DNA of 60,883 nt, the filler included. It is 5 parts of 5 records of this genome, joined end to end, with 100 filler letters (N's around TTAATTAATTAA, not from the genome) between each part and the next. Parts side by side here need not be neighbours in the genome. Positions count along the whole stretch, not along the records: positions 15,052 to 45,280 come from SRR20825019_3027; 4 more parts are not named here. One strand, given 5' to 3'. Each line of letters starts with the position of its first letter. Position 1 is the first letter of the stretch. Both the position numbers and the translations under genes were made by a program. Below are positions 3,822 to 55,561 of this stretch, in pieces. The notes below the pieces were generated by a model. The model made no database searches. It saw only the letters and a list, made by a program, of their open reading frames with translations, and was not told the origin of the DNA.

Positions 3822-4505
3822 ATGGATCACACCCGCACCCTTGCAGACCAGACGCCCAGCCGCGCCGAACTGGAGAACATCTTTTCGCAAGGCCACCGCG
3901 CGTCCCTTGAAAACTGCGATCTGAGCGGGCTGAACCTGTCCGATCTTGACCTATCGGGATCGCAGTTCACGGGCTGCAAACTGGCGCGCACCGCTTTCAA
4001 TGGCACACGGCTTGACGAGGTGCGATTTGCCAATTGCCGCGCGGCTGGGGCCAGTTTTGTCGGGGCCAATCTGCAAGAGGCCACAATTGAGGGCGGGGAT
4101 TTCAGCAACACCAGCTTTCGCGCGGCGACGCTGAATGCAACCAGAATCCTGAACTGCAAGATGACGGGCTCGGACTTCACCGATGCGAAAACGCTGGGCT
4201 TTTCCATCGAGGGCGTTTTGCTGGTGCTTGCGGTCCTGCCGCGCATGTCCTTTCGCAAGATGACCCTGAAAGAGGTGGATTTCACCGACGCCGACCTGCG
4301 GTCCTGTGATTTCCGAGAGGCGGTTTTCGAGGAGTGTTCGCTGCGCGACGCGCATCTGCCGGAGTGCCGGTTCGAAGGGGCAGACCTGCGCGGGGCGGAT
4401 TTGGGCGGGGTCCGGCTGACCGATGCGCGGCTGTTCAAGGGGGCGGTTATTTCCAAGCATCAGGCGGCTGACCTGCTGGGGCAGCTTGGGTTGACGGTTC
4501 TTTAG
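3822..4505 (+). CDS. Pentapeptide repeat protein
   Basis: Nearly continuous A/C-D/N-L/F-x-x repeats (CDLSGLNLSDLDLSG, ADLRGADLGG). Confidence 0.9.
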   Translation: MDHTRTLADQTPSRAELENIFSQGHRASLENCDLSGLNLSDLDLSGSQFTGCKLARTAFNGTRLDEVRFANCRAAGASFVGANLQEATIEGGDFSNTSFRAATLNATRILNCKMTGSDFTDAKTLGFSIEGVLLVLAVLPRMSFRKMTLKEVDFTDADLRSCDFREAVFEECSLRDAHLPECRFEGADLRGADLGGVRLTDARLFKGAVISKHQAADLLGQLGLTVL

Positions 4506-7087: not shown

Positions 7088-7187
7088 NNNNNNNNNNNNN
7101 NNNNNNNNNNNNNNNNNNNNNNNNNNNNNNNTTAATTAATTAANNNNNNNNNNNNNNNNNNNNNNNNNNNNNNNNNNNNNNNNNNNN
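7088..7187. other. Artificial contig linker
   Basis: 100-nt N run with central TTAATTAATTAA. Confidence 0.97.
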
Positions 7188-14951: not shown

Positions 14952-15051
14952 NNNNNNNNNNNNNNNNNNNNNNNNNNNNNNNNNNNNNNNNNNNNTTAAT
15001 TAATTAANNNNNNNNNNNNNNNNNNNNNNNNNNNNNNNNNNNNNNNNNNNN
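14952..15051. other. Artificial contig linker
   Basis: N run with TTAATTAATTAA; abrupt switch from GC-rich to AT-rich sequence. Confidence 0.97.
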
Positions 15052-24721: not shown

Positions 24722-26110
<1,389 letters not shown>

Positions 26111-28564: not shown

Positions 28565-29283
28565 TGGTTGTCGCTACAAAAGCCATTGTTTTTTCAGCTA
28601 TAAAATATTCCGAAGCAGATTTAATTGTTAGTTGTTATACCGAAATTGCTGGAGTTAAAAGCTATTTACTTCGCAACATCCTAAAATCTAGAAAAGGGAA
28701 ATTAAAAGCGTCTTATTTTCTTCCACTTACACAACTAGAACTTATTGCCGACCATAAAAATAAAGGCACTTTAGAATATATAAAAGAAGCAAAAATTAAT
28801 AATCCGTACCAGACTTTACATACCGATATTGTAAAGTCTGGATTGGTATTATTTTTATCTGAAATGCTAAAAAACTGTATCCGTGAAGAAGAAACCAACC
28901 AAGAGCTCTATACTTTTTTAGAAAACGCTATGCATTGGTTAGACCAAAATGATGAAGTTGCCAACTTCCATATTTACTTCTTGTTACAGTTAAGTATGTA
29001 TTTGGGTTTCTATCCAGATGCTTCCAATATTGAACAAAAATATTTCAATATTAGCGAAGGAAATTTTCAAGCAATAAACACAAATAATTATTGCTTAGAA
29101 GGTGAAAGAATAGAAAATTTTAAAAGTTTTTTTGAAGTAAAAATACAAGCAATAAAAAATATTAAGCTCACCAAAAAACAACGCCATGATGTGTTGGAGT
29201 TGATTTTGAGTTATTATAGCTTTCATATGCAAGGATACCAAAAGCCGAAATCGCTTGCAGTTTTAAACCAGCTATTTTCTTAA
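28564..29283 (+). CDS. recO: DNA repair protein RecO
   Basis: KYSEADLIV, PLTQLE, YLGFYP, KSLAVL. Confidence 0.9.
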   Translation: MVVATKAIVFSAIKYSEADLIVSCYTEIAGVKSYLLRNILKSRKGKLKASYFLPLTQLELIADHKNKGTLEYIKEAKINNPYQTLHTDIVKSGLVLFLSEMLKNCIREEETNQELYTFLENAMHWLDQNDEVANFHIYFLLQLSMYLGFYPDASNIEQKYFNISEGNFQAINTNNYCLEGERIENFKSFFEVKIQAIKNIKLTKKQRHDVLELILSYYSFHMQGYQKPKSLAVLNQLFS

Positions 29284-29305
29284 TTGAAGTAAGAAAATTT
29301 ATTTT

Positions 29306-30874
29306 TTATTCAACTTTTTGGAAATCCAAATCCTGAAAATCATAGCTAAAATCAGTCAATGGCGAGATGGCACTAATTAAGAAACCAGCCGCTTTAGCTT
29401 CTTCATCTAAACTAAAATTAACAAATGCATCTGCTTTTAATGCTGGATCATCCCAATAAACCACATAGGTTGTTCCTTTATAGAAAGTCATGGTTCCCTT
29501 TAAATCTGCAGATTTTTCTGAAGTAAAGCGTAGTTTCCCATTTTGGTTACTGATAGTAACTTTGCCAAACCAAGCATCTTCGTATACACCAATATAATCT
29601 AATGGATTTGGTTTTTGAGCTTTGGTTTTAAGTTGGGCAGCAATATTTTTTTCTACAGCCAGCACAATGCTATCTGCTTTGCGTTCTCCTGCCAAACGAC
29701 GGTCGTTGTATTGTTTAATTCTATCTTCACCTTTTATATTAAAATAACCATCTTTTATAGAATTAGTGATAGCTGTAAACGCTGCGCCACTTTGTTGGTT
29801 GGTAAGCACAATTATCCCTAAATCTAATTCTGGAATAAGGGTTACTTGACTAACAATTCCTAACAAACCTCCTGTGTGTGTAGCTTGAAAATAACCGTTT
29901 ACATCACTTAAAAACCAGCCCAAACCATAGGCTGAAAAATGAGTGTTGTATGGACCTTTTCCACTTCTTAAAATAGTTTGTGGCGTCCACATTTCAGTGT
30001 GAATATCTTTACTAAAAAGACTATCCTGTAATTTTTCGCCATACCTGCCACTATTTAATTGTGCTTGCGCCCAAACACTCATATCATTTATTGATGCATA
30101 AATACCACCGGCTGGCGTGGCGAGTTGAGTAAATGTATCTCCTGTAACCTCCAGTTTTCCGTTTACTGGAGCATGACCGTCAATACGGTTTGCATCGGCC
30201 TTTATTTCTGGAATAGACAGTAAAGAGCGGTTCATTCCTAAGGGCTTAAAAAAGTTATCTGAAATATAATTATCAAAATCTTTGCCTGAAACTCTTGAAA
30301 CTATTTCACCCGCAACGATATAGAGTAAATTGTCATAATCAAACTTGCTCCTAAAGGAAGAAACAGGTTTTAAATAACGAAGATTATGAATTAATTCATC
30401 TTTTGTAGTTGTATTTGAAGCAGGAAAAATCATTAAATCCCCAGCGCCAAGCCCTAAACCACTTCGATGAGTTACAAGATCGCGTACTGTAAATTCACTT
30501 GTAACGTAGGCGTCATGTAATTTAAATTCAGGAATAATATCTGTTACTTTGGTATCCCATGTTAATTTTCCCTGATCTATAAGTTGCCCCAAAGCAGCTG
30601 TTGTAAATGCTTTGGTGTTTGAAGCTACGCCAAAAAGTGTGTTTTCGTTTACTGCAGCATTTGATTTAAGGGAACGTACACCAAAGGTGTTTTTATGATA
30701 AATTTTTCCATCCTTTAAAACAGCTACTGCCATTCCTGGAACATCAAAAGTTTTCATTGTTTTCTGAACCAAGCTATCAATTTGTGATCCACTTAAAACT
30801 TGGGCATTCACTGAAAAACAAAAGAAAAGAAGCGGAAATAGAAAGAGTGTAATTTTAGTAGAAAAAGATTTCAT
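29306..30874 (-). CDS. Serine hydrolase, beta-lactamase/AmpC family with C-terminal DUF3471-like domain
   Basis: SNTK (SxxK), YDN (YxN) and HTG motifs; signal peptide. Confidence 0.85.
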   Translation of the reverse strand: MKSFSTKITLFLFPLLFFCFSVNAQVLSGSQIDSLVQKTMKTFDVPGMAVAVLKDGKIYHKNTFGVRSLKSNAAVNENTLFGVASNTKAFTTAALGQLIDQGKLTWDTKVTDIIPEFKLHDAYVTSEFTVRDLVTHRSGLGLGAGDLMIFPASNTTTKDELIHNLRYLKPVSSFRSKFDYDNLLYIVAGEIVSRVSGKDFDNYISDNFFKPLGMNRSLLSIPEIKADANRIDGHAPVNGKLEVTGDTFTQLATPAGGIYASINDMSVWAQAQLNSGRYGEKLQDSLFSKDIHTEMWTPQTILRSGKGPYNTHFSAYGLGWFLSDVNGYFQATHTGGLLGIVSQVTLIPELDLGIIVLTNQQSGAAFTAITNSIKDGYFNIKGEDRIKQYNDRRLAGERKADSIVLAVEKNIAAQLKTKAQKPNPLDYIGVYEDAWFGKVTISNQNGKLRFTSEKSADLKGTMTFYKGTTYVVYWDDPALKADAFVNFSLDEEAKAAGFLISAISPLTDFSYDFQDLDFQKVE

Positions 30875-30955
30875 AAACAGATTTTTTTTGGAGCTTAAAG
30901 GTATTAAATCTTTTTTTTTAAATCTACGTTTGCTACGCTACGACATCTAGGTGGT

Positions 30956-32344
30956 TTACACCAATTTCAACTGATTTACTATTTCTTGCAAGGAAGCCTT
31001 TGCGTCACCAAAAAGGATGCTACAGTTATCAAGTCCAAAAAGATCATTTTGAATTCCTGCGTAGCCTTTATTCATACTTCTTTTCATAACAATAACTTGC
31101 TTGCTTTCATACGCACGAATTATAGGCATCCCGAACACAGGGCTATCCGGATTATTTTCAGCCGCAGGGTTTACCACATCATTGGCTCCTAAAACTAAAA
31201 CAGTATCGTATTGCGCCATGTTTTCATTGCCTTCATCCATTTCTTTTAGACGTGCATAATCTACGTTTGCTTCAGCAAGTAGCACGTTCATGTGTCCAGG
31301 CATACGGCCAGCAACGGGGTGAATAATATAATCGACTTCACAATTTCTTTTTTCTAATAACTGCTGAAGTTGGCCGCAAATATGTTGTGCCTGCGCAACT
31401 GCTAATCCATACCCAGGGATAATTGCAACTTTTTGAGCAAATGATAGTGTTAAGGCAGTTTCAGATATACTTATTTCCTTTATTTCTTGTTCTTCTTCAA
31501 TTGCACCAGCCTTACTCTTTTTAAAAGTTCCTGCGAGTACTTTCATTAGTGAACGGTTCATCGCTTTACACATTAAAAGTGTAAGTAAAATCCCTGCAGC
31601 TCCAACAAAAATACCACCAGCAATCATTGCTTTATTGCCATAAACGAAGCCAGCAAAAGCAGTTGCAATACCTGTAATACTATTTAAAAGTGAAATTACA
31701 ACTGGCATATCTGCACCACCAATTGGCAGTACAAAAAGCACCCCATATATCATGGCGATTGTAGCCAAAACATACATAAAAGCAGTAAAACCTATAGGAA
31801 TAAGGCCAACAAAATATACTATTGGTAATACGACCATTAACCCTAAAAGTATTCTTGCTGAAAAGATAACAGCTTTACTACGCCTATCTTTTACTTTTCC
31901 TGCCAGTTTTCGTTCAGCAATGATACTTCCTGTTAAGGCAATTGCACCAGTAACTAAACCAGCTATAAGTAGTATTTTATTTCCTAAAATTGTAGTTGAA
32001 ACATCAATTTGGTTGGCTTCCATTAATCCTAAAAGCATTGCACAACCTCCACCAGTTGCGTTAAACAAAGAAACCAATTGAGGCATTCCTGTCATTTCTA
32101 CTTTATCTGAAAGACGTTTGCCTACTACAGTTCCCACAGCTATTGCCAAAAACATTATTATCAGGTTTGTGTAAGGAACAGTTGCGGTAATAGCGGCTAT
32201 AAAAGTTAGTATTACGGCCAAAACCATACCAATGGCGGCTATTAAATTTCCTGTTTTTGCGCTTTTTGGGGAACTCATAAACTTTAATCCTCCCAAAAAG
32301 GATAGGGTGGCCAATAAATAGCCTACTTCAATAATTGCGTGCAT
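30956..32344 (-). CDS. pntB: NAD(P) transhydrogenase beta subunit
   Basis: GGADMPVVISLLNS, HPVAGRMPGHMNVLLAEA, GANDVVNPAA. Confidence 0.95.
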   Translation of the reverse strand: MHAIIEVGYLLATLSFLGGLKFMSSPKSAKTGNLIAAIGMVLAVILTFIAAITATVPYTNLIIMFLAIAVGTVVGKRLSDKVEMTGMPQLVSLFNATGGGCAMLLGLMEANQIDVSTTILGNKILLIAGLVTGAIALTGSIIAERKLAGKVKDRRSKAVIFSARILLGLMVVLPIVYFVGLIPIGFTAFMYVLATIAMIYGVLFVLPIGGADMPVVISLLNSITGIATAFAGFVYGNKAMIAGGIFVGAAGILLTLLMCKAMNRSLMKVLAGTFKKSKAGAIEEEQEIKEISISETALTLSFAQKVAIIPGYGLAVAQAQHICGQLQQLLEKRNCEVDYIIHPVAGRMPGHMNVLLAEANVDYARLKEMDEGNENMAQYDTVLVLGANDVVNPAAENNPDSPVFGMPIIRAYESKQVIVMKRSMNKGYAGIQNDLFGLDNCSILFGDAKASLQEIVNQLKLV

Positions 32345-32350
32345 GGTTTA

Positions 32351-32647
32351 TTATTTTTTAGGGCTAAACATTTTTAGCATACGCCCAGTAACAAAAAATC
32401 CTCCAGAAATATTAAGGGTGCCGAGAAAAATTGCGATTCCACCCAAAGTGAGGTTTAAGTAATCATCGGCAGGAACGCGAAGCATTACAATAATTGCTCC
32501 TACCAAAATTACTCCGCTTATGGCGTTGGCGCCAGACATTAATGGAGTGTGTAAAATGGCAGGTACATTTGCAATTACTTCAATGCCAATAAAGACACAG
32601 AAAATCACAAAATAAATTTCTTGAATATGTAGGTTAATGAAATCCAT
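32351..32647 (-). CDS. NAD(P) transhydrogenase alpha subunit, membrane part (PntAb)
   Basis: LHTPLMSGANAISG and GGFFVTGRML.MF. Confidence 0.93.
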   Translation of the reverse strand: MDFINLHIQEIYFVIFCVFIGIEVIANVPAILHTPLMSGANAISGVILVGAIIVMLRVPADDYLNLTLGGIAIFLGTLNISGGFFVTGRMLKMFSPKK

Positions 32648-32649
32648 GG

Positions 32650-33780
32650 TTATGCTGGTTGTAGTTGTTTTGTAAAATGAGGGTGTGACCATTCACCATT
32701 ATCCAATATTTTGCAAGCAGAAAGCAAAGTGTCTTCTGGATTTTCAGATTTAGACATATATTTAATAAATGAGAAATAGTTGTTTGAAAGTAATTTGGAA
32801 GCTGCTGCGGGTACTTCGGCAGAAAGGCTTGAGTTTCCAATTATGGTAATTCCGTTATAGTTTATAACTTCTTTGTTTTTTGAAAGTTCACAGTTTCCTC
32901 CTTGTTCTGCAGCAAGATCGATAATAACACTTCCAGGCTGCATCGCATTTACAGAGCGCGTTTCTATGAGTAAAGGTGCTTTTCTTCCAGGAATGTTTGC
33001 GGTACTGATTATAATATTTGCAGATTGTATATGCTTGTGTATTAATTCTTTTTGCTTCTGTTGGTATTCTTCGGTTTGTTCTACAGCATAACCTCCAGCA
33101 TTTGAAGATTCTACATAGCCTTCCACTTCAATAAATGTTGCACCAAGGCTACGTACTTCTTCACCAGCAGATTTTCTAACGTCAAAAACTTCAACTACGG
33201 CACCCAATCTTCTTGCTGTGGCAATGGCTTGCAAACCAGCAACACCAGCACCCAATACTAATATTTTTGCTGGGGTAAGTGTTCCAGCAGCCGTTGTAAA
33301 CATTGGAAAAACTCCATTATAAAACTCAGCCGATTTTAATATGGCACGATAACCTGCCAAAGACGCCATGGACGAAAGTACATCCATAGATTGCGCTAGC
33401 GTAGTTCTTGGTAAAAGGTCTAGGCTAAAAACAGTAGCGCCATGATTTTTGTATGTAGCGAATTTCGAATCATGAAATAGGGGATTGAAAATACCAATGA
33501 AGCAACAATCCCCCTTCATTTCCACTTCGCTAAAAGTATGATTTATGGATACAATGGTATCCGATTTTTTAAATACGCTTTCACGAGGTATGCACGTGGC
33601 TCCCGCTTTTGTGTATTCTTCATCTTCAATTTGAAGCGAGCTGCCCAGCCCAGGTTCAAAAAGCACATTGAGGTTCAACTCTCCTGTAATACGTGCTACC
33701 TCCTTGGGCAACAAACAAACCCGTGGATCATTTGGGGTTTTTAAAATTCCAATTGTCATAGGCTTTGGCTGCTCGCTCAT
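32650..33780 (-). CDS. pntA: NAD(P) transhydrogenase alpha subunit, NAD-binding part (PntAa)
   Basis: AQSMDVLSS, GAGVAGLQA, GGYA, DLAAEQGGNC. Confidence 0.93.
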   Translation of the reverse strand: MSEQPKPMTIGILKTPNDPRVCLLPKEVARITGELNLNVLFEPGLGSSLQIEDEEYTKAGATCIPRESVFKKSDTIVSINHTFSEVEMKGDCCFIGIFNPLFHDSKFATYKNHGATVFSLDLLPRTTLAQSMDVLSSMASLAGYRAILKSAEFYNGVFPMFTTAAGTLTPAKILVLGAGVAGLQAIATARRLGAVVEVFDVRKSAGEEVRSLGATFIEVEGYVESSNAGGYAVEQTEEYQQKQKELIHKHIQSANIIISTANIPGRKAPLLIETRSVNAMQPGSVIIDLAAEQGGNCELSKNKEVINYNGITIIGNSSLSAEVPAAASKLLSNNYFSFIKYMSKSENPEDTLLSACKILDNGEWSHPHFTKQLQPA

Positions 33781-33807
33781 TGTTTTTAAATAAATTATTA
33801 GTTGTAC

Positions 33808-34188
33808 TTATTTGCTAAGAATTGAAAAATATTCTTCTTTAACTTCTCTATACTTTTTTAAATGAAGCATGTATTTTTTTCTGAATTTCTCATGTTCTGT
33901 TATATAAAACATATCACAATCTGCATCTTCACATTCAGTAGCTTTAGGAAGTGCTTCTTTATATTTTAAAAAATCGTTTATAACTCGCGTATTATCTTCA
34001 TTTTCCTTTTTGAGTTTAATACGAATAGTTTCAGATGCTTCTTTTTTATGATCTCCTAAATTCTCAAGATTTAACAAGTTTGTTATTTCTTTATCTATAT
34101 AATAGAGATGCTCAATCCAGCTTTCTAATTCAATTGAATTGTTTTTGAAAGTGATTGTTTCCGGTGAGTCGTGATCGTAAATCTGCAT
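33808..34188 (-). CDS. Hypothetical helical protein with CEDADCD motif
   Basis: 126-aa ORF in operon position; amphipathic helices. Confidence 0.7.
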   Translation of the reverse strand: MQIYDHDSPETITFKNNSIELESWIEHLYYIDKEITNLLNLENLGDHKKEASETIRIKLKKENEDNTRVINDFLKYKEALPKATECEDADCDMFYITEHEKFRKKYMLHLKKYREVKEEYFSILSK

Positions 34189-34216
34189 TATATAACTAAT
34201 TTTCAGGTGATAATTT

Positions 34217-34633
34217 CTATAATAAAACGTCTATATCGATAGGCTTTTCGGCTTGTTTTACACTTGTAATCTGTAATTCTTTAGCACCATTTGGAAAATT
34301 CCATATAACGGAATCTCCTTCTGCATAGCCCATTACGGCAGAACCCATTGGCGCTAAAATGGAAATTTTGTTGGCCGAAATATCACGGTCTGTTGGAATT
34401 ACCAATTGAAATTGGGTTTCCCAAGTCCCAGATTTTACTGTAACAAGGCTGTTGAAGCGAATTACATCTTCAGGCATGCTTTCATTGTCGTAAATAATTG
34501 CGCTGGTAAGCTCACCACTTAATTTTTTTAAAGAATCTTTTGTGTTTTGGTCTTTGTAATAACCAGTTACATTCAAAAGTCGCTTTAGAAAAACATATTC
34601 TTTTTTCTCTAATACTATATTTTCATATTTCAT
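34217..34633 (-). CDS. GreA/GreB-family factor, Rnk-like (short N-terminal coiled coil)
   Basis: MPEDVIRFNS, KISILAPMGSAVMG; 138 aa. Confidence 0.85.
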   Translation of the reverse strand: MKYENIVLEKKEYVFLKRLLNVTGYYKDQNTKDSLKKLSGELTSAIIYDNESMPEDVIRFNSLVTVKSGTWETQFQLVIPTDRDISANKISILAPMGSAVMGYAEGDSVIWNFPNGAKELQITSVKQAEKPIDIDVLL

Positions 34634-34654
34634 CGCTCTTCAATTTTTTAAATA

Positions 34655-34701
34655 TGGTGAAACATCCATTAGTGTATTATTTCACAATAGATGTTTCACC
34701 A
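34655..34701 (-). promoter_or_regulatory. Strong intergenic hairpin between gdh2 and the rnk-like gene
   Basis: Perfect 12-bp inverted repeat TGGTGAAACATC/GATGTTTCACCA with further inner pairing. Confidence 0.65.
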
Positions 34702-34713
34702 ACCCCACATTTA

Positions 34714-36009
34714 TTATGGGAAAATACCTCTTAAAATATATGCTTTTTCAATACGTTCTATGGCGATACTAAAGGCCGCAGTACGCATGTCTACTGAGTT
34801 TTCTTCAGAATAGGTTGTAACCTTTTTAAAGGTAGTGCGAAGTTTTTTCTCTAGTTTTTCAAGGATTTCATCCATTTGCCAAAGCTCTCCGTTACGGTTT
34901 TGAAGCCATTCAAAATAGCTGCCAATTACTCCGCCAGAATTACACATAATGTCTGGAATAATAGTAATACCACGCTCCAACAATATTTTTTCACCTTCCA
35001 CATCTGTAGGGCCATTAGCGCCTTCAGCAATTAATGATGCTTTTACAGAATGAGCGTTGTGTTTTGTAATTTGGTTGCCCAAAGCTGCAGGAATACAGAT
35101 GTCGCAATCTAACGCAAAGAAATCATTGCTTTCTAAAGATGTAGCCTCAGGGAATCCTACAATGCTGCCATTATTCGCTTTTCCGTAGTTAAAAAGATCC
35201 TCAACGGTGATTCCAGAATTGTTTTGAACACTTCCGAAGGCATCTTGAACACCGATCATTTTTGCGCCTTCATTTTCAAGAAAATGTGCAGCCCAATACC
35301 CAACATTTCCAAAACCTTGAACAATAAATGTTTTACCTTTTAGGCTTTGGTTGTTTTTTTCAGCCCAAAACTTAATAGTTAAAAATACACCATAACCAGT
35401 TGCGCGGTCACGACCTTCTAAACCACCACTACCTACAGGTTTTCCTGTAACTACGTGTTGGTTTTTAGAACGTTCACTCGTATTTTTAGTACTCATATAC
35501 GTATCTGCAATCCACGCCATTGTTTGGTCGTTTGTGTTTACGTCTGGTGCGGGAATATCATGTTCAGGACCAATATTTTCACCTAAAGCATAGGTGAATC
35601 TACGTGTAATTCGTTCTAATTCACTTTTAGAATACTTCGAAGGATCTATCTGAATTCCTCCTTTAGCACCGCCATAGGGTAAACCTGCTAATGATGTTTT
35701 CCATGTCATCCACATTGCTAAAGCACGTGCAGCGTCAATATCTACAGTTGGGTGATAGCGAAGACCTCCTTTATATGGGCCTAATGCATTGTTGTGTTGT
35801 ACTCTATATCCAGTAAATATTTGTACATCACCATTGTCCATACGAACCGGAAAATTGATGATTATCTCTGTATTAGTAATACTTAGAATTTTGCGAACGT
35901 TTGGGTTTAGCTTTATTTGGTCGGCAGCTGTATTAAACTGTTCCAACACATTTTCCAACATTCCTTTTTTTACAGTTATTGGTTTTTCCACTGTTTGTTC
36001 ATTTGTCAT
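34714..36009 (-). CDS. Second Glu/Leu/Phe/Val dehydrogenase (probably NAD-type glutamate dehydrogenase)
   Basis: [37 protein letters not shown]. Confidence 0.92.
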   Translation of the reverse strand: MTNEQTVEKPITVKKGMLENVLEQFNTAADQIKLNPNVRKILSITNTEIIINFPVRMDNGDVQIFTGYRVQHNNALGPYKGGLRYHPTVDIDAARALAMWMTWKTSLAGLPYGGAKGGIQIDPSKYSKSELERITRRFTYALGENIGPEHDIPAPDVNTNDQTMAWIADTYMSTKNTSERSKNQHVVTGKPVGSGGLEGRDRATGYGVFLTIKFWAEKNNQSLKGKTFIVQGFGNVGYWAAHFLENEGAKMIGVQDAFGSVQNNSGITVEDLFNYGKANNGSIVGFPEATSLESNDFFALDCDICIPAALGNQITKHNAHSVKASLIAEGANGPTDVEGEKILLERGITIIPDIMCNSGGVIGSYFEWLQNRNGELWQMDEILEKLEKKLRTTFKKVTTYSEENSVDMRTAAFSIAIERIEKAYILRGIFP

Positions 36010-36021
36010 TTTAATATTTTT

Positions 36022-36195
36022 TTAAATTGTAACCAATTCTGGCTCGCTTTTTTTGATTTTCACAATAGGTTTTGGTGCTTGGTACTGTGATTCATCAAAT
36101 TCACTACATGAAAATACCAAGCTTTTATTGTGCGTTAACACACAAAAAGATTCGTACGCACATTTAGGACAAAGGTTTAAAGAATTAGCATTCAT
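36022..36195 (-). CDS. Unannotated 57-aa cysteine-rich small protein (C-x2-C-x5-C-x11-C)
   Basis: Hand translation MNANSLNLCPKCAYESFCVLTHNKSLVFSCSEFDESQYQAPKPIVKIKKSEPELVTI; fills the gap between the sigma54 promoter and gdh2, ending 12 nt before it. Confidence 0.7.
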   Translation of the reverse strand: MNANSLNLCPKCAYESFCVLTHNKSLVFSCSEFDESQYQAPKPIVKIKKSEPELVTI

Positions 36196-36223
36196 AGATA
36201 CTTTTTGTTTGCTATTCCTATTG

Positions 36224-36238
36224 GCAAGCTGTGTGCCA
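36224..36238 (-). promoter_or_regulatory. Sigma54 (-24/-12) promoter
   Basis: Minus strand TGGCAC-ACAGC-TTGC, exact TGGCAC-N5-TTGC spacing, next to a GAFTGA activator gene. Confidence 0.85.
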
Positions 36239-36326
36239 TTAGCGCTTTTCTAGTTTAAACTATTAATTAAGCAACTGAAATAAAGAGATTTAAGTGTTTT
36301 TAGGGGATTTTTAAGACATAGTTTAT

Positions 36327-36365
36327 GTGGGGAAATTCGCACCGCGTTGGGGTAAAATTCCCCAA
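36327..36365. promoter_or_regulatory. Paired palindromic upstream activator sites
   Basis: GTGGGGAAATTCGCAC and TTGGGGTAAAATTCCCCAA: GC-rich dyads in AT-rich DNA, about 90-125 bp upstream of the -24 element. Confidence 0.7.
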
Positions 36366-36418
36366 TAACGCTATTCTAAACTATTTAATTTAGAATATAA
36401 TTTATAGAAATATAAAAA

Positions 36419-37735
36419 CTACTTTTTGAATTTACTGCGAAGTGTTTTGCGGTCAATTTTTAGAATTTCTGCAGCTTTTGTTTGATTGTTATCTGTTGCA
36501 GCCAATACTTTTTCAATATACTTTTTTTCAATTTCCTTTAAAGAAAGCATATCGTCCTCTGGAAAATCTATTTGATATTTTAAACTTTCAGGCAAATCTT
36601 TGATGCCAATAGTTCTATCACACATAATTACGGCACGCTGAATTACATTTTCTAACTCACGAATATTTCCAGGCCAATTATACCGTTGCATCAGCGTTTT
36701 TGCTTCCGAATCAATTGTTATATAGCGATCTTTGTATTCGTTTCCGTATTTTAGAAGAAATTTATCCGCCAATAATGGAATATCTTCCTTGCGTTCGCGA
36801 AGTGGTGGAACATTAATTTCAACAACCGTTAATCGGTAAAAAAGATCTTCACGAAAGGTTTCCTTTGCAATCATTTCTTTTAAATTGCTATTGGTAGCCG
36901 CGATAACACGTGCGTCTATTTTTTCACTAGTACGAGCACCTACTTTTACAATTTCTTTTTCTTGTAAAACTCTTAAAAGTCTAGATTGTACTGCAAGTGA
37001 AGCGTTGCCTATTTCATCAAGAAAAATTGTACCACCTTCAGCGGCTTGAAAAAACCCTTCACGATTGTCGTTTGCTCCTGTAAAAGCACCTTTTATATAC
37101 CCAAATAGTTCAGATTCTAACAGGTTTTCTGGAATTCCACCACAATTAACTGCTATGAATGGCGCGCGAGAAAACTTTCCGTTATAATGAATGGAGCGTG
37201 CAACGAGCTCTTTACCGGTACCGCTTTCACCACTTATATAAATTGTTGCTTTGTTATCTTTTACACGATCAATAATTTGGGTTACATTTTTTATAGCTTC
37301 ACTTTCACCAATTATTTCGTTGTATTTTTTAGTCTGCTTGCTTTCAGAAGAAGTTTTTTTATTCTTTTCTGGCGGAAGCGATTTTAGCACACTTTTTTTT
37401 AATTCTTCTTTTGTAAAAGGTTTTACCAAATAATCTACAGCGCCAAATTTAATTACAGATAGTTCATCCTGTATAGACGGGTAACCCGTAACCACAAGTT
37501 TTGGTAAAGTAGGATAATGTTCTGCGGCAAATTTTATAAGTTGAAAACCATCAACTTCAGGCATTTTTAGGTCTGTAATAAGCAAATCGATGTCAGTATC
37601 ACGCAGAATGACGATGGCTTCTTTTACTGAAACGGCTTTGTATGTATGGTAATTTAATGATTGCAAATGACGCTGGATAAGCTCCAGAATATTGATGTCG
37701 TCATCTACAATTAATATGTTTTCCTTTTGCAGCAT
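36419..37735 (-). CDS. Sigma54-dependent response regulator (NtrC/AtoC family)
   Basis: Receiver domain (VDDD, TDLKMP), GESGTGKE, GAFTGA, WPGNIREL, Fis-type HTH. Confidence 0.95.
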   Translation of the reverse strand: MLQKENILIVDDDINILELIQRHLQSLNYHTYKAVSVKEAIVILRDTDIDLLITDLKMPEVDGFQLIKFAAEHYPTLPKLVVTGYPSIQDELSVIKFGAVDYLVKPFTKEELKKSVLKSLPPEKNKKTSSESKQTKKYNEIIGESEAIKNVTQIIDRVKDNKATIYISGESGTGKELVARSIHYNGKFSRAPFIAVNCGGIPENLLESELFGYIKGAFTGANDNREGFFQAAEGGTIFLDEIGNASLAVQSRLLRVLQEKEIVKVGARTSEKIDARVIAATNSNLKEMIAKETFREDLFYRLTVVEINVPPLRERKEDIPLLADKFLLKYGNEYKDRYITIDSEAKTLMQRYNWPGNIRELENVIQRAVIMCDRTIGIKDLPESLKYQIDFPEDDMLSLKEIEKKYIEKVLAATDNNQTKAAEILKIDRKTLRSKFKK

Positions 37736-37740
37736 TGTTG

Positions 37741-38829
37741 TTATTGTTTCGGAAAAGTAATAATAAATAATGCACCTGTTGGGTTATTAGCTTGATAATC
37801 TATGGTGCCTTGATGGCTTTTTATAATTCCATGAACCACGCTTAACCCTAAACCAGAGCCATCACCCACGGTTTTTGTTGTAAAAAATGGCTGAAATATT
37901 TTCTGAACATTTTCTGGTTCAATGCCAGACCCTTCATCAGAAATTTTAAGAATTATTTTTTTTGAAGTTTCTTCCAAAGTTATTTCAATCAAGCCATTTT
38001 TAGGTGAAAAATAAATGGCGTTTAGCACCAAATTAAAGATTACTTGGGTAAGCTGAATGGTGTCAGCTTTTAGTAAAACTTCTCCTTTTGGGAATTTAGT
38101 TTTATAATTTAATTCATTTTTTTTGAAAGTTGCATCTAGAAGATTTATGGCATCTTTTATTACGGGAACAATGTCGGTTTTTATGAAATTTTGCGGCATT
38201 TCACAAGCAAAGAACATTAGTTTTTTTACTACTTCACGCGAAAAAATAGCACTGTTTATAATTTTATCGAGATCTTTATTAGCTTGAATGCTGTTTGGCT
38301 CTTTGCCTTTAAGGAGTTCTGCAAAGCCTAAAATATTTGCAAGAGGTGTGTTGAGTTCGTGTGCTATTCCTGCAGTAATTTCCCCCAAAATACTTAAGCG
38401 GTCTGCGTGTTCCATTTTTCGTTTTATAACGGCCTCGTTTTCTCTAATGGCAACACGTTCTAATAAATCGCCTACATTGATGGCAACGTTTTTTAGCAAT
38501 TTTTTTTCCTCTTTTAAAAAATCTTTTTTCTCAAATTTATCTGTGGAATAGTGAACTTTTATATATCCTTTTGGCTCATTGAAAATAGTAATCTTACTTT
38601 CAATAAACACACTTTTATGTGGTAAAGCTGAAGTAATAAGATGAAATTTCTCAGCCTTGATTTCTACTATAGTGTTTTTACTATACTGAAAAGACTTGCG
38701 TAAACTAAGTGCGATGGAGTAAAGCGTTTTATCTACTTCTTTATAATCGTTATTTACTATTATAGAAGAAACTTCGTATAGACAGGTAAGTTCTTTAATG
38801 CGTTCTTTAAGGTTTTTCTCTATAGTCAT
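37741..38829 (-). CDS. Cytoplasmic sensor histidine kinase
   Basis: AHELNTPL H-box, N/G/F boxes (FQPFFTTK, GSGLGL); no TM segment; N-terminal LKERIKELTCLY. Confidence 0.92.
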   Translation of the reverse strand: MTIEKNLKERIKELTCLYEVSSIIVNNDYKEVDKTLYSIALSLRKSFQYSKNTIVEIKAEKFHLITSALPHKSVFIESKITIFNEPKGYIKVHYSTDKFEKKDFLKEEKKLLKNVAINVGDLLERVAIRENEAVIKRKMEHADRLSILGEITAGIAHELNTPLANILGFAELLKGKEPNSIQANKDLDKIINSAIFSREVVKKLMFFACEMPQNFIKTDIVPVIKDAINLLDATFKKNELNYKTKFPKGEVLLKADTIQLTQVIFNLVLNAIYFSPKNGLIEITLEETSKKIILKISDEGSGIEPENVQKIFQPFFTTKTVGDGSGLGLSVVHGIIKSHQGTIDYQANNPTGALFIITFPKQ

Positions 38830-38849
38830 AAAAGCACTTCAAATTTTTT

Positions 38850-38857
38850 CAAAGGTA
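38850..38857 (-). promoter_or_regulatory. Bacteroidetes -7 promoter element for the two-component pair
   Basis: TACCTTTG 20 nt before the kinase start. Confidence 0.55.
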
Positions 38858-38954
38858 TTAATTAAAACTATCTCCGTCTAAAAACTTAAATAGTCCATTA
38901 ATCAAGGTGTAAAATGTTTTATATAGCAGTAAATAAATAAAAACGAAATGAGAA

Positions 38955-39308
38955 TTATTTTAGGTCTTTTTTCACCAACAGATAGAAATCATTATCCAGC
39001 GGTAAGTAACCTTGATCGTATAAATAAAAGTATGTTGCGCCAGATTTTGTGGTGTAAATCCCAGTAAAAAAATCAAAATTAAAACCCATTCGTAGCAGTT
39101 TATCTTTGGTGGTTTTGGTTTTGTCTTCGGGATTTAAAGTTTCAAGTATGCGATAGTTTTTTCGAAGCCTATTATTAATATTTCGAACCAGATTTTTGTT
39201 GTCCTTGTTCAACGAATTATTATGTGCGTTTCGACATGCATCACTACAGAATTTTTTGTCAATTCGCCCAATTAATTTATCGCCACATTCCGGACAAGTT
39301 CTTTCCAT
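38955..39308 (-). CDS. Zinc-ribbon hypothetical protein (DUF2116-like)
   Basis: CPECG...GRIDKKFCSDACR. Confidence 0.75.
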   Translation of the reverse strand: MERTCPECGDKLIGRIDKKFCSDACRNAHNNSLNKDNKNLVRNINNRLRKNYRILETLNPEDKTKTTKDKLLRMGFNFDFFTGIYTTKSGATYFYLYDQGYLPLDNDFYLLVKKDLK

Positions 39309-39368
39309 ATTTTAAAGATAGAATTTTTTTCCGAAAGGATAAAGTGCAAAAAAGAAGCAGTAGTATTG

Positions 39369-40277
39369 CTAGTTATCTTTTTCAGCTTCTTTTATATGAA
39401 ACCTATAAATAGCTTCAAATTTTAAAAATACACCCCCATTAAGTGCTGGGTTCAATTGAGTGCGATTGTCTCCAAAACTAAAGGCTGAAACTCCCAAATC
39501 CTGTTTATCGCCTGCGGCATACATTTCATAATTATTGCTGGAATACCCTAATTTTGCTCGTAATAAAACACTTTCTTCCAAGGCATTAAACTGTACATAG
39601 CTGGCAAACTCTAAAGAGCTGAGGTCTGCGTATAGTTTCGGGCTGTTTTTATACTGAACAGTATAGCTACGCCCAATTCCAAAATAATCTATCCCAATTG
39701 TTGTAATGCCCAATTTATAGCTTACATCTGCAGAAATAGGCAAGCTCATATCCATTTCAAACTTTTTATTAGGACTCATATAATACCAGCCTAAAATGGG
39801 TGTTGTAAAAAGTCCGAATGCTTCTTGAGATGCGTAAATACCAAAGCGGTATTTAAGATTTTCACTTTTTTTCAGTTTTAAAACCGCAAAACCACCCAAA
39901 TAAAAATCATCACTTGAAATGTTGTTATAATCGGATGCAATTTTGGGTAATAAAACAATAGTTGTGCTCCACTTTTCAGACCAAGTTGAAGCCATTCCTA
40001 GTTTTATGTTTGTGCTGTAAAGACTAACAAATTCGGTATCTGGAAAAAGCTGAAGGTTATTTCTACTGAAATCTGCACCTGTTATTAATGCATGCTTTTC
40101 GTTCAAAACAATAGGAAAAGTAAGTCCCGCTTCAAAAGATTTTACATAGGTACTGCTGTGTACACCTTCAAAATTATTATTGAAGGTTTGTCCATAACCA
40201 AGGCGAAAAATATCTACATACTCTTGTGAAAAAGTTATCCACGGAATGAATAAAAGTAAGAATATGATTTTTTTCAA
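39369..40277 (-). CDS. Outer-membrane beta-barrel protein (DUF6268-like)
   Basis: Signal peptide, aromatic-rich strands, LLPKIASD and terminal IYRF. Confidence 0.65.
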   Translation of the reverse strand: MKKIIFLLLFIPWITFSQEYVDIFRLGYGQTFNNNFEGVHSSTYVKSFEAGLTFPIVLNEKHALITGADFSRNNLQLFPDTEFVSLYSTNIKLGMASTWSEKWSTTIVLLPKIASDYNNISSDDFYLGGFAVLKLKKSENLKYRFGIYASQEAFGLFTTPILGWYYMSPNKKFEMDMSLPISADVSYKLGITTIGIDYFGIGRSYTVQYKNSPKLYADLSSLEFASYVQFNALEESVLLRAKLGYSSNNYEMYAAGDKQDLGVSAFSFGDNRTQLNPALNGGVFLKFEAIYRFHIKEAEKDN

Positions 40278-40288
40278 ATTACAATTTT

Positions 40289-42358
40289 TTATTTTTCAAA
40301 AGCGTCAATTCCGTTTCGCAACCAAGTATTGTATTCCTCAATATCTGGTGTATAACCAACAGGGTCTATAAGGTTTTCTTCGTTGTGATCCATTAAAACA
40401 TAGAAAGGTTGGGCGTTTGCTTTATACTTAAGAATTTGAAATTCACTCCATTTTTGACCAATATAGCGTAGTTTTTTCCCAGATATTTCTGAAACAATTT
40501 CTTGGCCATCAGGTAGCGGACGTTTATCGTCCACATAAAGTGAAATAAGTACAATATCTTCCTTAAGTGGCTTTAATATTTTTGGTTCACTCCAAACGCG
40601 TTCTTCCATTTTACGGCAATTTACACATGCATGCCCCGTGAAGTCAATCAAAACAGGCTTTCCAACTTTTTTGGCGTATGCCAAACCGGTTTCGTAATCG
40701 TGGAATGAAATAATATCGTGTGGCCCTAAATGTGCGCCTTCTGGAAATTCTTCAAGACTTGAAGTACCACCACTGCCTAATTTTGTATAACCAACACCAT
40801 ACGGAGATTCGCTATAATTCATAGCTGGTGGGAAACCACTAATTAATTTTAATGGTGCGCCCCATAGTCCAGGAATCATATAAATAGTAAAGGCTAAAAC
40901 CAATAAACCAAGACTCAATCTTCCTACAGAAATGTGTGATAAAGGAGAGTCATGTGGTAATTTTATTTTTCCGAATAAATACAGTGCCAAAATTCCAAAT
41001 ATAGCAATCCAAATAGCTAAGAATACTTCTCTTTCCAGCCAATGAAGCTGAAGCACTAAATCTGCATTCGATAAAAATTTGAATGCTAAAGCAAGTTCTA
41101 AAAAGCCTAAAAATACTTTTACTGTATTTAACCAACCACCTGATTTAGGAAGCGAGTTCATCCAGCCTGGGAAAGCTGCAAAAAGTGCAAAAGGCAATGC
41201 TAAAGCTAATGAGAACCCAAACATACCAACAAATGGCGCAATACCTCCTTTTGACGCTGCTTCAACTAGCAAAGTTCCTACAATTGGACCTGTACAAGAA
41301 AAGGAAACGATAGCCAATGCTAATGCCATAAAGAAAATTCCAATTAATCCACCACGATCTGCTTGTTTATCTACTTTATTTGCCCAAGAATTTGGTAGCA
41401 TAATTTCAAAAGCACCTAAGAATGAGAATGCAAAAACAACCAATAATAAAAAGAAGATAACATTAAACCAAACGTTTGTAGACAGGGCATTAAGAGCATC
41501 TGCTCCAAACAACCATGTAACTATTGCGCCTAGGAAAATGTATATAAGAATGATTGCAATGCCGTAAATTATTGCGTTTTTAATACCTGCAGCACGTGTT
41601 TTACTCTGTTTGGTAAAAAAACTAACCGTCATGGGTATCATCGGGAATACACATGGCGTTAGTAAAGCAGCGAAACCTGATAAAAAAGCAATGAAAAAGA
41701 TGGTCCAAAGTCCTTTATTTTCTTCTTTTTTGTTTTGTTCAACCGCAGTAAGGGAATCATCTTTTGTGTCAGTTTGAATTGTATCGTTTACAACTTCTGT
41801 TTGTGTGGTTTCAAGGGCTGTTGTGTCTTCACTTACTTCAGTAATACCAATCTCAGAATTAGTAGCATCATCTGGAATTACTACTGTTTCAGTAATTTGT
41901 TCTGGTGCAGGAATTTTAAAGACTAAATCTACGTAATTAGGTGGCAGACAGCGGGTGTCATCACAAACCATAAACTCAACTTCACCTTTTATAGTGGTTC
42001 CTTTAGCCCCAGTTAGCTTTACTCTTTTAGTGAATGTTGCTGTGTTTGAGAAGAAGGTAATTACCATATCGAACACAGGATCGAGTTCAGTAGTTCCTTT
42101 ACTTTCTTTTATTTTTCCTACAGATTGGTAGGCGTCGTTTTCTTCAAAAGTAAAAACAGTAGGTAAGGGTCCATTTTCAGGAACAACTTGCGAATATAAA
42201 TGCCAGTTATCCTCAATCGTTGCTTTTGAAATTAAATCGTATTCAGTCTCCGATATTTTTTTAATGCTTGTAGACCATTTTACGGGGTCAAGTATTTGAG
42301 ATTGAAGGGCTGTAAATGAAATTAATGCTAGAAGTAGGGATAGTAATAATTTTTTCAT
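40289..42358 (-). CDS. dsbD: Thiol:disulfide interchange protein DsbD family
   Basis: N-domain CDDTRC, TM LTPCVFPMIP and FSCTGP, thioredoxin CVNC. Confidence 0.92.
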   Translation of the reverse strand: MKKLLLSLLLALISFTALQSQILDPVKWSTSIKKISETEYDLISKATIEDNWHLYSQVVPENGPLPTVFTFEENDAYQSVGKIKESKGTTELDPVFDMVITFFSNTATFTKRVKLTGAKGTTIKGEVEFMVCDDTRCLPPNYVDLVFKIPAPEQITETVVIPDDATNSEIGITEVSEDTTALETTQTEVVNDTIQTDTKDDSLTAVEQNKKEENKGLWTIFFIAFLSGFAALLTPCVFPMIPMTVSFFTKQSKTRAAGIKNAIIYGIAIILIYIFLGAIVTWLFGADALNALSTNVWFNVIFFLLLVVFAFSFLGAFEIMLPNSWANKVDKQADRGGLIGIFFMALALAIVSFSCTGPIVGTLLVEAASKGGIAPFVGMFGFSLALALPFALFAAFPGWMNSLPKSGGWLNTVKVFLGFLELALAFKFLSNADLVLQLHWLEREVFLAIWIAIFGILALYLFGKIKLPHDSPLSHISVGRLSLGLLVLAFTIYMIPGLWGAPLKLISGFPPAMNYSESPYGVGYTKLGSGGTSSLEEFPEGAHLGPHDIISFHDYETGLAYAKKVGKPVLIDFTGHACVNCRKMEERVWSEPKILKPLKEDIVLISLYVDDKRPLPDGQEIVSEISGKKLRYIGQKWSEFQILKYKANAQPFYVLMDHNEENLIDPVGYTPDIEEYNTWLRNGIDAFEK

Positions 42359-45280: not shown

Positions 45281-45380
45281 NNNNNNNNNNNNNNNNNNNN
45301 NNNNNNNNNNNNNNNNNNNNNNNNTTAATTAATTAANNNNNNNNNNNNNNNNNNNNNNNNNNNNNNNNNNNNNNNNNNNN
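45281..45380. other. Artificial contig linker
   Basis: N run with TTAATTAATTAA. Confidence 0.97.
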
Positions 45381-55461: not shown

Positions 55462-55561
55462 NNNNNNNNNNNNNNNNNNNNNNNNNNNNNNNNNNNNNNN
55501 NNNNNTTAATTAATTAANNNNNNNNNNNNNNNNNNNNNNNNNNNNNNNNNNNNNNNNNNNN
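55462..55561. other. Artificial contig linker
   Basis: N run with TTAATTAATTAA. Confidence 0.97.

Follow-up and report, generated by a model that had tools for sequence, protein, structure and literature searches.

We analysed a 60,883-base stretch of DNA (the window) that carries nine open reading frames (ORFs) around a glutamate dehydrogenase (GDH) gene, all on the minus strand and spanning 30956-38829. The cluster encodes a soluble histidine kinase, an NtrC-class response regulator, a 57-residue protein with four cysteines (Cys4 protein), the GDH, an Rnk-like protein, a 126-residue protein and the three parts of a transhydrogenase (PntAA, PntAB and PntB). It is probably the Aequorivita version of a unit shared by many Flavobacteriaceae, in which a GAF kinase and an NtrC-class activator control, by way of paired DNA dyads and sigma-54, an inducible operon for a glutamate-oxidising GDH, with the pnt genes added in this lineage.

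According to this model, a soluble kinase with a small GAF-type sensor would read an intracellular metabolite or redox cue and phosphorylate the activator, which would bind the two dyads and, together with sigma-54 RNA polymerase, switch on the operon in the order Cys4 protein, GDH, Rnk-like RNA polymerase factor and three-helix CX4C protein (the 126-residue protein). The induced enzyme, a second GDH beside a housekeeping NADP-dependent GdhA, would oxidise glutamate, the hub of amino acid catabolism in peptide feeders. In the Aequorivita/Ulvibacter lineage the pnt genes at the 3' end would be expressed by read-through past a hairpin that follows the GDH gene, and PntAB would turn the NADH made by the GDH into NADPH.

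Conservation of the Cluster across Flavobacteriaceae

The window consists of five contigs with GC contents of 0.63, 0.56, 0.35, 0.59 and 0.60, joined by linkers (N44 + TTAATTAATTAA + N44) at 7088-7187, 14952-15051, 45281-45380 and 55462-55561. The differing GC contents indicate that at least two organisms are mixed in the source assembly. The nine genes lie wholly within the third contig (15052-45280; 30,229 bases, GC 0.349), which alone of the five appears to be Aequorivita-like: the 126-residue protein is 93% identical to a protein named from Aequorivita sp. Q41, and the cluster GDH is 92% identical to the GDH of an Aequorivita metagenome-assembled genome (MAG). The genes were described as co-oriented and, downstream, closely spaced in an earlier sequence-only reading, and the ORFs agree with this, the intergenic gaps from the Cys4 ORF to pntB being 12, 80, 28, 27, 2 and 6 nt.

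A comparison set was built with the GDH alone as query against genome contigs, from which the best 80 of at least 594 relatives were taken (73-92% GDH identity; 29 named genera and unnamed Flavobacteriaceae). The cluster proteins were compared with these loci by tblastn (E<=1e-5), followed by ORF calling. Kinase and regulator genes stand directly upstream of the GDH gene, on the same strand, in 73 of the 80 loci (absent in L017, L048, L057, L062, L066, L072 and L073). The Rnk-like gene was found downstream of the GDH gene in 75 loci, the gene for the 126-residue protein in 76, and the Cys4 ORF between promoter and GDH gene in 68. No other gene proved to be widely conserved around the unit when all ORFs of at least 80 aa from the 80 loci were clustered all against all. 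Judged from these comparisons, the conserved unit comprises the kinase, the regulator, two dyads, a -24/-12 promoter, the Cys4 ORF, GDH, the Rnk-like gene and the gene for the 126-residue protein. No pnt gene occurs within 10 kb in 64 of the 80 loci, placing the end of the conserved core at the gene for the 126-residue protein. Thus, the synteny of kinase/regulator, gdh, rnk and pnt expected from the sequence-only reading holds for the core up to this gene and fails for pnt (adjoining in 13/80 loci), and a self-contained nine-gene redox module is not a conserved entity.

Some loci carry additional genes within the unit. In L079 (4288-5640) and L080 (8097-9960) the promoter is first followed by genes for a 160-aa Rnk paralog and a 120-aa secreted protein, in L080 also for a 195-aa protein, and the Cys4 ORF and GDH gene come only later. 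Where the distance from promoter to GDH gene is long, one or two extra conserved basic ORFs of 38-49 aa lie between the Cys4 ORF and the GDH gene (L011, L013, L015, L023, L031, L033, L036, L037, L042-L044, L046, L047, L053-L055, L060, L065, L069, L071 and L074). One type ends in ...ERSI(T/S)NR(L/Y)FK, and the other has ...F-x-T-I-R-x-S-P-Y-x-F-S-N.... The two L065 copies, searched against Pfam, had no match, and there are no such ORFs in the studied stretch.

Control Region with Paired Dyads and a -24/-12 Promoter

The predicted sigma-54 promoter of the operon, TGGCACACAGCTTGC (36238..36224, minus strand), matches TGGCAC-N5-TTGC exactly and is the sole zero-mismatch match in the 60.9-kb stretch. 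A distance of 28 nt separates its end from the Cys4 ATG at 36195; among the loci, the Cys4 ORF usually starts 23-37 nt after the -12 element. A -24/-12 element is present between regulator and GDH genes in all 73 regulator-bearing loci, with at most two mismatches and both GG and GC kept in 63, and with TTGT or TTGA at -12 in the remaining 10. Approximately 90-125 bp upstream of the promoter lie two adjacent dyads of the form TGGGnAA-N5-yCCCA, a putative upstream activating sequence (36328-36364, minus strand). The first, TGGGGAATTTTACCCCA (36364..36348), is exact and the second (36344..36328) is weaker. A conserved central element, TTTCAGTTGCTTA (36262-36290, minus strand), is located between dyads and promoter.

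We aligned 170 bases of the control region from the studied locus and 52 loci of many genera (alignment A2, 53 sequences). Both dyads (consensus TGGGnAATTTTTCCCCA-nn-TGGGnAATTnTTnCCCA), the central element and the GG/TTG of the -24/-12 promoter are kept in register, with GG..A of -24 and TTG of -12 invariant. The central element reads TTG..TCAG...TTTA, its columns T95, A103 and T109 being nearly invariant. Such in-register conservation across 53 aligned regions indicates that the layout is more than chance. The central element appears to resemble the consensus of integration host factor (IHF) and may be a DNA-bending site.

A position matrix for the double dyad, trained on 52 of the 80 loci, scored at least 14 at the expected place in 74 of the 80, a count that is partly circular because those 52 loci had trained the matrix. 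In 276 random 300-base stretches from the same loci the median best score was -6.7 and the maximum 10.4. Three loci (L017, L048 and L072) keep dyads and promoter without an adjacent kinase and regulator, which fits a regulator acting in trans. Taken together, the regulatory architecture of two-component system, enhancer, -24/-12 promoter and operon is well supported, and comparative genomics strongly supports the circuit proposed in the sequence-only reading, including its paired dyads and exact -24/-12 promoter. From this we infer that the regulator binds the dyads and that the operon depends on sigma-54.

The kinase and regulator genes had been assigned a housekeeping-type promoter of their own. 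A candidate box, TACCTTTG (38857..38850, minus strand), lies 20 nt before the kinase ATG and matches TAnnTTTG, given as the flavobacterial sigma-A -7 consensus in passages of PMC9723704. The sequence ATTTGATACCTTTGAA is conserved at this box in the Aequorivita clade, and, of 72 related loci, 29 have a TAnnTTTG in the 80 nt preceding the kinase ATG, compared to 0 of 72 control stretches. The motif itself is not enriched across the window (50 found, 48 expected). A scan with the sigma-70 consensus returned fewer promoter-like sites than in shuffled sequences, and the terminator scan returned no intergenic terminator. Rfam gave no match within 29000-40000.

Two further features were seen in the control regions of other loci. 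In L013, L018, L022, L023, L038, L043, L053 and others, the -24 TGGCAC is preceded at a distance of 11 nt by another TGGCA(C/T), which gives a tandem -24-like element (for example TTGGCACGCCCAATGGCACAACAGTTGC; A2 columns ~145-165); it is absent from the studied locus. In L011, L013, L018, L022, L033, L036, L043, L044, L069 and others, the space between dyads and promoter, where the studied locus has the IHF-like element, contains a hairpin (AAACCCTTT-N-AAAGGGTTT type) with Ts after it. This hairpin may terminate the regulator gene or act as a bending site. As the studied locus lacks it, read-through from the kinase-regulator transcript is possible there.

A GAF-Type Kinase and an NtrC-Class Regulator

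The kinase (37741-38829, minus strand; 362 aa) has no membrane segment by hydropathy (maximum over 19 residues, 1.36), in agreement with its earlier description as soluble. Residues 1 to ~135 form an N-terminal sensor, followed by the Pfam domains HisKA and HATPase_c. No Pfam family matched residues 1-135 even at E<=10, GAF models included. An AlphaFold2 (AF2) model of the sensor, built from 49 sequences, has four strands and a predicted local distance difference test score (pLDDT) of 93. In a Foldseek search of this model against the PDB, GAF domains came top (6oap, 6e-4; the A. aeolicus Nlh1 GAF 4g3k, 9e-4; the NifA GAF 8jrc, 6e-3), the top matches having a probability of 1.00, query-normalised TM-scores of 0.5-0.7 and E-values of 6e-4 to 1e-2. 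The matched GAF domains come from sigma-54 activators, NifA, CodY and cyanobacteriochromes. An atlas lead to GAF families (0.86-0.87), weak alone, was used only alongside the fold search. The modelled fold suggests that the sensor is a reduced, small GAF domain. Its Cys16 is invariant, as is the motif L-x-E-R-I-K-E-L-T-C-L-Y.

The regulator (36419-37735, minus strand; 438 aa) consists of a receiver domain (REC, PF00072, 1.2e-23), an AAA+ domain (Sigma54_activat, PF00158, 7.4e-68) and a C-terminal Fis-type helix-turn-helix (HTH_8, PF02954, 1.6e-12). The GAFTGA motif, claimed in the sequence-only reading, can be read in the translation. The protein is an NtrC-class regulator by its receiver, its AAA+ domain with GAFTGA and its C-terminal helix-turn-helix. 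Its best NCBIfam match is NtrC, below the cut-off (402.8 versus 558.6 bits, TIGR01818; 328.2 versus 620, PRK10923), and it also remains below the equivalog cut-offs of AtoC (394.8 versus 714), ZraR (357.7 versus 760) and NtrX. The kinase likewise falls below those of AtoS (168.7 versus 646) and ZraS (144.8 versus 479).

The system shares with NtrB/NtrC, AtoSC and ZraSR the REC-AAA+(GAFTGA)-Fis-type architecture of the regulator, the paired kinase, dyads ~100 bp upstream and a -24/-12 promoter. In contrast to these systems, it reaches no equivalog cut-off, has a minimal GAF-like sensor with an invariant cysteine, and is directed at a GDH operon rather than glnA. The TGGGnAA-N5-yCCCA dyad also differs from the NtrC site.

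A Second, Specialised Glutamate Dehydrogenase

The cluster GDH (34714-36009, minus strand; 431 aa) contains both Pfam ELFV domains. Its closest solved structures are 1b26 (3e-118), 3aoe, 3k92 (1.9e-103) and 3k8z, which places it in the hexameric RocG/Thermotoga class, together with the enzymes of Thermotoga, Thermus, plants and Bacillus. The PDB entries 3k92 and 3k8z are named NAD-specific GDH; they represent the catabolic enzymes RocG and GudB of Bacillus subtilis. The same contig encodes another GDH of 447 aa (24767-26110, plus strand), 9 kb from the cluster GDH, which scores above the equivalog cut-off that NCBIfam sets for NADP-specific GdhA (779 versus 536 bits) and is 31% identical to the cluster GDH. 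With this canonical NADP-GdhA present, the sigma-54-type GDH is a second, specialised enzyme. A reading of the cofactor from the dinucleotide-binding fold was rejected: in both GDHs the second strand ends in an Asp, a residue that is not known to discriminate between cofactors in the GDH family.

Three considerations favour an inducible, glutamate-oxidising role: the presence of a housekeeping NADP-GdhA, a class that includes a sigma-54-controlled catabolic enzyme of Bacillus, and a peptide diet. Which way the GDH runs, which cofactor it uses, what cue is read and what the three small proteins do are predictions in this model. A metabolite signal fits equally well as a redox or oxygen signal.

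Control of a catabolic GDH by sigma-54 is already described for Bacillota (RocR/RocG of Bacillus) in passages of PMC12316311 and PMC3162934. As in the RocR/SigL-rocG system of B. subtilis, a predicted sigma-54 promoter and a dedicated AAA+ activator would drive a hexameric GDH of the same class, here a RocG-class enzyme in another phylum. RocR is a one-component activator of the PAS-AAA+ type that lacks a receiver domain and works from an enhancer downstream of rocG. In contrast, the flavobacterial regulator has a receiver domain and a partner GAF kinase, has no one-component PAS arrangement, and would act from two upstream dyads; the operon adds the Cys4, Rnk-like and three-helix proteins and, in this lineage, PntAB.

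The match of the regulator to NtrC raises the alternative of an NtrBC-like system for nitrogen assimilation, in which nitrogen limitation would lead the GDH to aminate 2-oxoglutarate, with PntAB supplying NADPH, the usual donor of assimilatory GDH. We regard this as less likely than either a catabolic or a stress role, and indeed as quite improbable. The NtrC match is the best in NCBIfam (402.8 bits), yet the equivalog cut-offs of NtrC, NtrX and AtoC are all missed, the sensor is GAF-like with no PAS domain found in the kinase, and neither the cluster nor its conserved neighbours include glnA, glnB or amtB. Moreover, an NADP-GdhA is already encoded on the contig, and the closest structures of the cluster GDH include the NAD-specific-named 3k92 and 3k8z.

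A Hairpin after the GDH Gene and Continuity of the Operon

The 80-nt gap between the GDH stop and the Rnk-like start contains an RNA hairpin (34649-34707, minus strand) of -26.1 kcal/mol (z = -7.0; none of 200 shuffles folded as well). It was missed by the terminator scan because its inner loop exceeds the limit of the scan. Hairpins of different sequence were found at the same place in 10 of 12 folded loci of the Aequorivita/Ulvibacter clade, several of them followed by U-rich tracts. Loci with a gap of 14-27 nt have no post-GDH hairpin, and folding revealed none at the other junctions of the studied cluster or after pntB. The hairpin is a possible partial terminator or mRNA-stabilising element. 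Owing to its strength, co-transcription of the downstream genes is not assured in Aequorivita. The Rnk-like, 126-residue and pnt proteins would probably depend on read-through for their expression, which would lower their level relative to GDH.

An extreme form of this reasoning holds that the nine genes are not one unit: the transcript would end at the hairpin, and the Rnk-like gene, the gene for the 126-residue protein and pntAA-pntAB-pntB would be expressed separately, their adjacency having no regulatory meaning. The strength of the hairpin here and in the 10 related loci, several with U-rich tracts, and the absence of pnt from most loci would be expected on this view. However, there is no TAnnTTTG, dyad or -24/-12 element between the hairpin and pntAA; indeed, the minus strand has no TAnnTTTG anywhere between 33262 and 37444. 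The Rnk-like ATG comes only 15 nt after the hairpin, the tract that follows the hairpin, AUAUUUAAAAAA, is a poor U-run, and in most other genera the GDH and Rnk-like genes lie near each other, with a median gap of 21 nt. In Zunongwangia, furthermore, pnt lies under the same dyads (see below). We therefore consider separate expression improbable and retain the operon read through past the hairpin.

The Rnk-like protein (34217-34633, minus strand; 138 aa) carries the GreA_GreB C-terminal domain (PF01272). Its best NCBIfam model is Rnk (NF004396), below the cut-off (84.8 versus 109 bits), and among solved structures those of the Rnk type (2pn0, 2.6e-14; E. coli Rnk 3bmb, 1.8e-9) are closer to it than those of GreA or Gfh1. 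It resembles Rnk in size, in its GreA/GreB C-terminal domain and in a short N-terminal part. It differs in falling under the NCBIfam cut-off and in its location beside GDH in a sigma-54-type operon; binding to RNA polymerase is only putative here.

The 126-residue protein (33808-34188, minus strand) matched no family. Residues W24, E34, C86 and K117 are invariant and E85, C91 and D92 nearly so, with a conserved E-C-x-D-x2-C-D turn (CX4C). The AF2 model is a three-helix bundle (pLDDT 89), for which Foldseek found no PDB match at E<0.1 and profile search no match; for this and the Cys4 protein, Foldseek and profile searches of the PDB returned generic helical bundles or nothing. A second, tandem paralog is present in 15 of the 80 loci. 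Complex prediction for the Rnk-like and 126-residue proteins, run with alignments not used, scored 0.00, a result that is silent either way on binding.

PntAB and a Proposed Wider Regulon

The last three genes encode PntAA, the soluble NAD(H)-binding part of the alpha subunit (32650-33780, minus strand; 376 aa; AlaDh_PNT_N, PF05222, and AlaDh_PNT_C, PF01262), PntAB, its four-helix membrane part (32351-32647, minus strand; PNTB_4TM, PF12769), and the beta subunit PntB (30956-32344, minus strand; 462 aa). PntB matches PF02233 over positions 2-455 of 456 (524 bits). With these domains in adjacent genes, the set is recognised as PntAB. The PntAB ORF opens at 32692 (113 aa), and PNTB_4TM covers residues 26-110; its start is likely Met16 at 32647, 2 nt after the PntAA stop. 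The NCBIfam alpha model, which has 510 positions and meets a split protein here, scored 314 versus 383 bits, and the beta model 389 versus 689. A transhydrogenase of three polypeptides, PntAA-PntAB-PntB, is known from Rhodospirillum rubrum. The set studied here has the same split alpha subunit (soluble dI and four-helix membrane part), followed by beta, with full-length Pfam domains. Different from the known case, it is joined to a sigma-54-type GDH operon or, in Zunongwangia, placed under the same enhancer. No report of PntAB regulation by such a GDH-operon enhancer was found in the literature searched.

In the studied locus pntAA follows the gene for the 126-residue protein after 27 nt. The same arrangement, with gaps of 26-101 nt, occurs in 13 of the 80 loci (L001-L010, L012, L016 and L017), all from the Aequorivita/Ulvibacter clade; none of them has dyads or a -24/-12 element of its own before pntAA. 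In L062 pnt directly follows the GDH gene, with no control region, and in L034 and L065 it lies upstream of the kinase gene. By this distribution, pntAA-pntAB-pntB is a lineage-specific addition to the unit.

Five further double-dyad sites in the comparison loci score at least 20 with the matrix; the two of L065 and the one before the Dps-like gene of L036 reach 27-38, compared to the background maximum of 10.4. In the Zunongwangia MAG L065, the pntAA gene, which starts at 4033, has a double dyad (3829) and a -24/-12 element, TGGCACAGCAATTGA (3951), ahead of it, and this independently places pnt in the same regulon. Another dyad (12807) with an exact element, TGGCACATAGATTGC (12934), heads a unit of two small basic ORFs, another Rnk-like gene and a tandem Usp (to 14859). 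This MAG thus has three copies of double dyad plus -24/-12, before pntAA-pntAB-pntB, the Cys4-GDH operon and the basic-ORF/Rnk/Usp unit. In Winogradskyella, a double dyad with a -24/-12 element stands before a ferritin/Dps-like gene of L036. Both L036 and L011 also have a dyad ahead of a gene that immediately precedes the kinase gene and whose product, of ~205 aa, contains a four-helix-bundle sensory domain (sites at L036 3562-4238 and 5901-6688; L011 6187-6952). The filter detected no clear -24/-12 element before the ~205-aa sensory gene. The link between GDH and PntAB drawn in the sequence-only reading thereby has two independent supports, namely the pnt genes appended to the operon in 13 of the 80 loci and the same dyads with a -24/-12 element before pnt in L065.

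The Cys4 Protein and the Case for a Stress Regulon

The Cys4 ORF (36022-36195, minus strand; 57 aa) encodes C-x2-C-x5-C-x11-C, and an alignment of 59 sequences keeps all four cysteines without exception. Pairwise differences amount to 0.35, 0.30 and 0.58 at the first, second and third codon positions, and the cysteine codons switch between TGT and TGC. This pattern indicates a real gene under coding selection, of an unnamed family. When 1.84 billion representatives were searched with a profile, 717 proteins matched at E<=1e-3 and 73 at E<=1e-10, and some of them have 2-3 tandem copies of the module; a single-sequence search with the 57-aa ORF returned nothing, owing to the word index. The named relatives are all "hypothetical protein" from Flavobacteriaceae, and the protein has no match in Pfam (E<=10), the PDB or among named atlas entries. 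C-x2-C-x5-C is the spacing of Fe-S ligands in FNR and WhiB. A two-repeat relative, P0193, comes just under the cut-off of WhiB PF02467 (21.6 versus 23.6 bits), for which the studied protein has no match. Unlike in WhiB and FNR, the fourth Cys of the Cys4 protein lies downstream of the other three and not upstream, and there is no DNA-binding part; Fe-S binding is only putative.

These cysteines bear on a serious rival, a regulon for starvation, hypoxia or redox stress, in which the GAF kinase and perhaps the Cys4 protein would sense redox state or oxygen, GDH and PntAB would rebalance NAD(P)H, and the Rnk-like protein would reprogram RNA polymerase. What makes it serious is the membership of Usp and Dps-like genes, by which classical stress proteins enter the regulon in other genera, together with the conserved cysteines: a tandem Usp follows the gene for the 126-residue protein in 16 of the 80 loci, the Dps-like gene of L036 has its own double dyad, and cysteines are conserved in the kinase sensor (Cys16), in the C-x2-C-x5-C of the Cys4 protein, with its two-repeat relative close to WhiB, and in the CX4C turn of the 126-residue protein. 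However, cofactor and redox chemistry of these proteins are predicted at most, the Cys4 protein lacks any Pfam match even at E<=10 and its ORF is lost in 12 of the 80 loci, and the Usp and Dps-like genes are accessory and absent from the studied stretch. GAF domains, moreover, bind small metabolites more often, and the Foldseek matches include the GAF domains of NifA and CodY. We hold a stress regulon to be possible but rather unlikely, and prefer the inducible catabolic operon.

A bolder proposal would make the Cys4 family of 717 representatives a new Fe-S sensor of redox state or oxygen, forming with the Cys-bearing GAF kinase, the CX4C protein and the Rnk-like factor one undescribed circuit that ties redox state to amino acid oxidation, NADH/NADPH balance and Usp/Dps across marine Flavobacteriaceae. 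We offer this as a speculation with little chance of being right in full.

Neighbouring Genes

Past pntB, after 81 nt and with no hairpin between, lies a gene for a secreted serine hydrolase of 522 aa with a beta-lactamase/transpeptidase fold and DUF3471 (29306-30874, minus strand), for which every NCBIfam beta-lactamase score is far under the cut-off. It is probably outside the unit, since in related loci it lies 170-2360 nt away. Upstream of the kinase gene, a 117-aa protein with a CxxC...CxxxC zinc-ribbon-like N-terminus (38955-39308, minus strand) matches no family above threshold; 8 of the 80 loci have it too, at 76-94% identity, and these fall entirely within L001-L016. Further upstream on the same strand are genes for a DUF6268 outer-membrane-like protein (39369-40277) and a DsbD-like thiol:disulfide interchange protein of 689 aa (40289-42358), neither of which is kept beside the unit in other genera.

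Discussion

Several observations weigh against the proposed unit of a glutamate-oxidising GDH with PntAB. Neither the cofactor nor the direction of the GDH can be read from its sequence; its closest structures include NAD-specific entries, and some of its closest solved relatives presumably use NADP. We infer both the sigma-54 dependence and the co-transcription of the operon, rpoN was not found on the 30-kb contig, and the post-GDH hairpin could end most transcripts before the Rnk-like, 126-residue and pnt genes. With pnt missing from the neighbourhood of most loci, redox balancing is not a general feature of the unit. The Cys4 ORF is decayed in five loci of the Aequorivita clade (L008, L009, L010, L016 and L017) and missing in seven others, and is thus dispensable. 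In four loci (L057, L062, L066 and L073) the GDH gene has no control region, and the range of the unit is drawn from the best 80 of at least 594 relatives of the GDH. The genes, the cis-elements and their co-conservation in these loci are nevertheless direct observations.

The sequence-only reading knew of no description of this gene set as one regulon, and none was found in the full-text literature searched, which did not include the genome paper of Dokdonia MED134, a source cited elsewhere in connection with a sigma-54 regulon. What is new, beside the known control of a catabolic GDH by sigma-54 in Bacillus, is the flavobacterial arrangement of a GAF kinase and an NtrC-class regulator, to which three protein families without a name are joined.

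Much of the protein and peptide in the sea is consumed by Flavobacteriaceae, and it is through GDH that amino nitrogen leaves this diet. No account of how they regulate GDH was found in the literature searched. The locus offers a compact and complete regulon of sensor, activator, enhancer, promoter and targets, present in at least 29 named genera. It also gives a context to three unnamed families: the Cys4 protein, which is widespread beyond this operon, the three-helix CX4C protein and the minimal GAF sensor. Finally, PntAB appears to have come under the same enhancer on two occasions, with a different gene arrangement each time.

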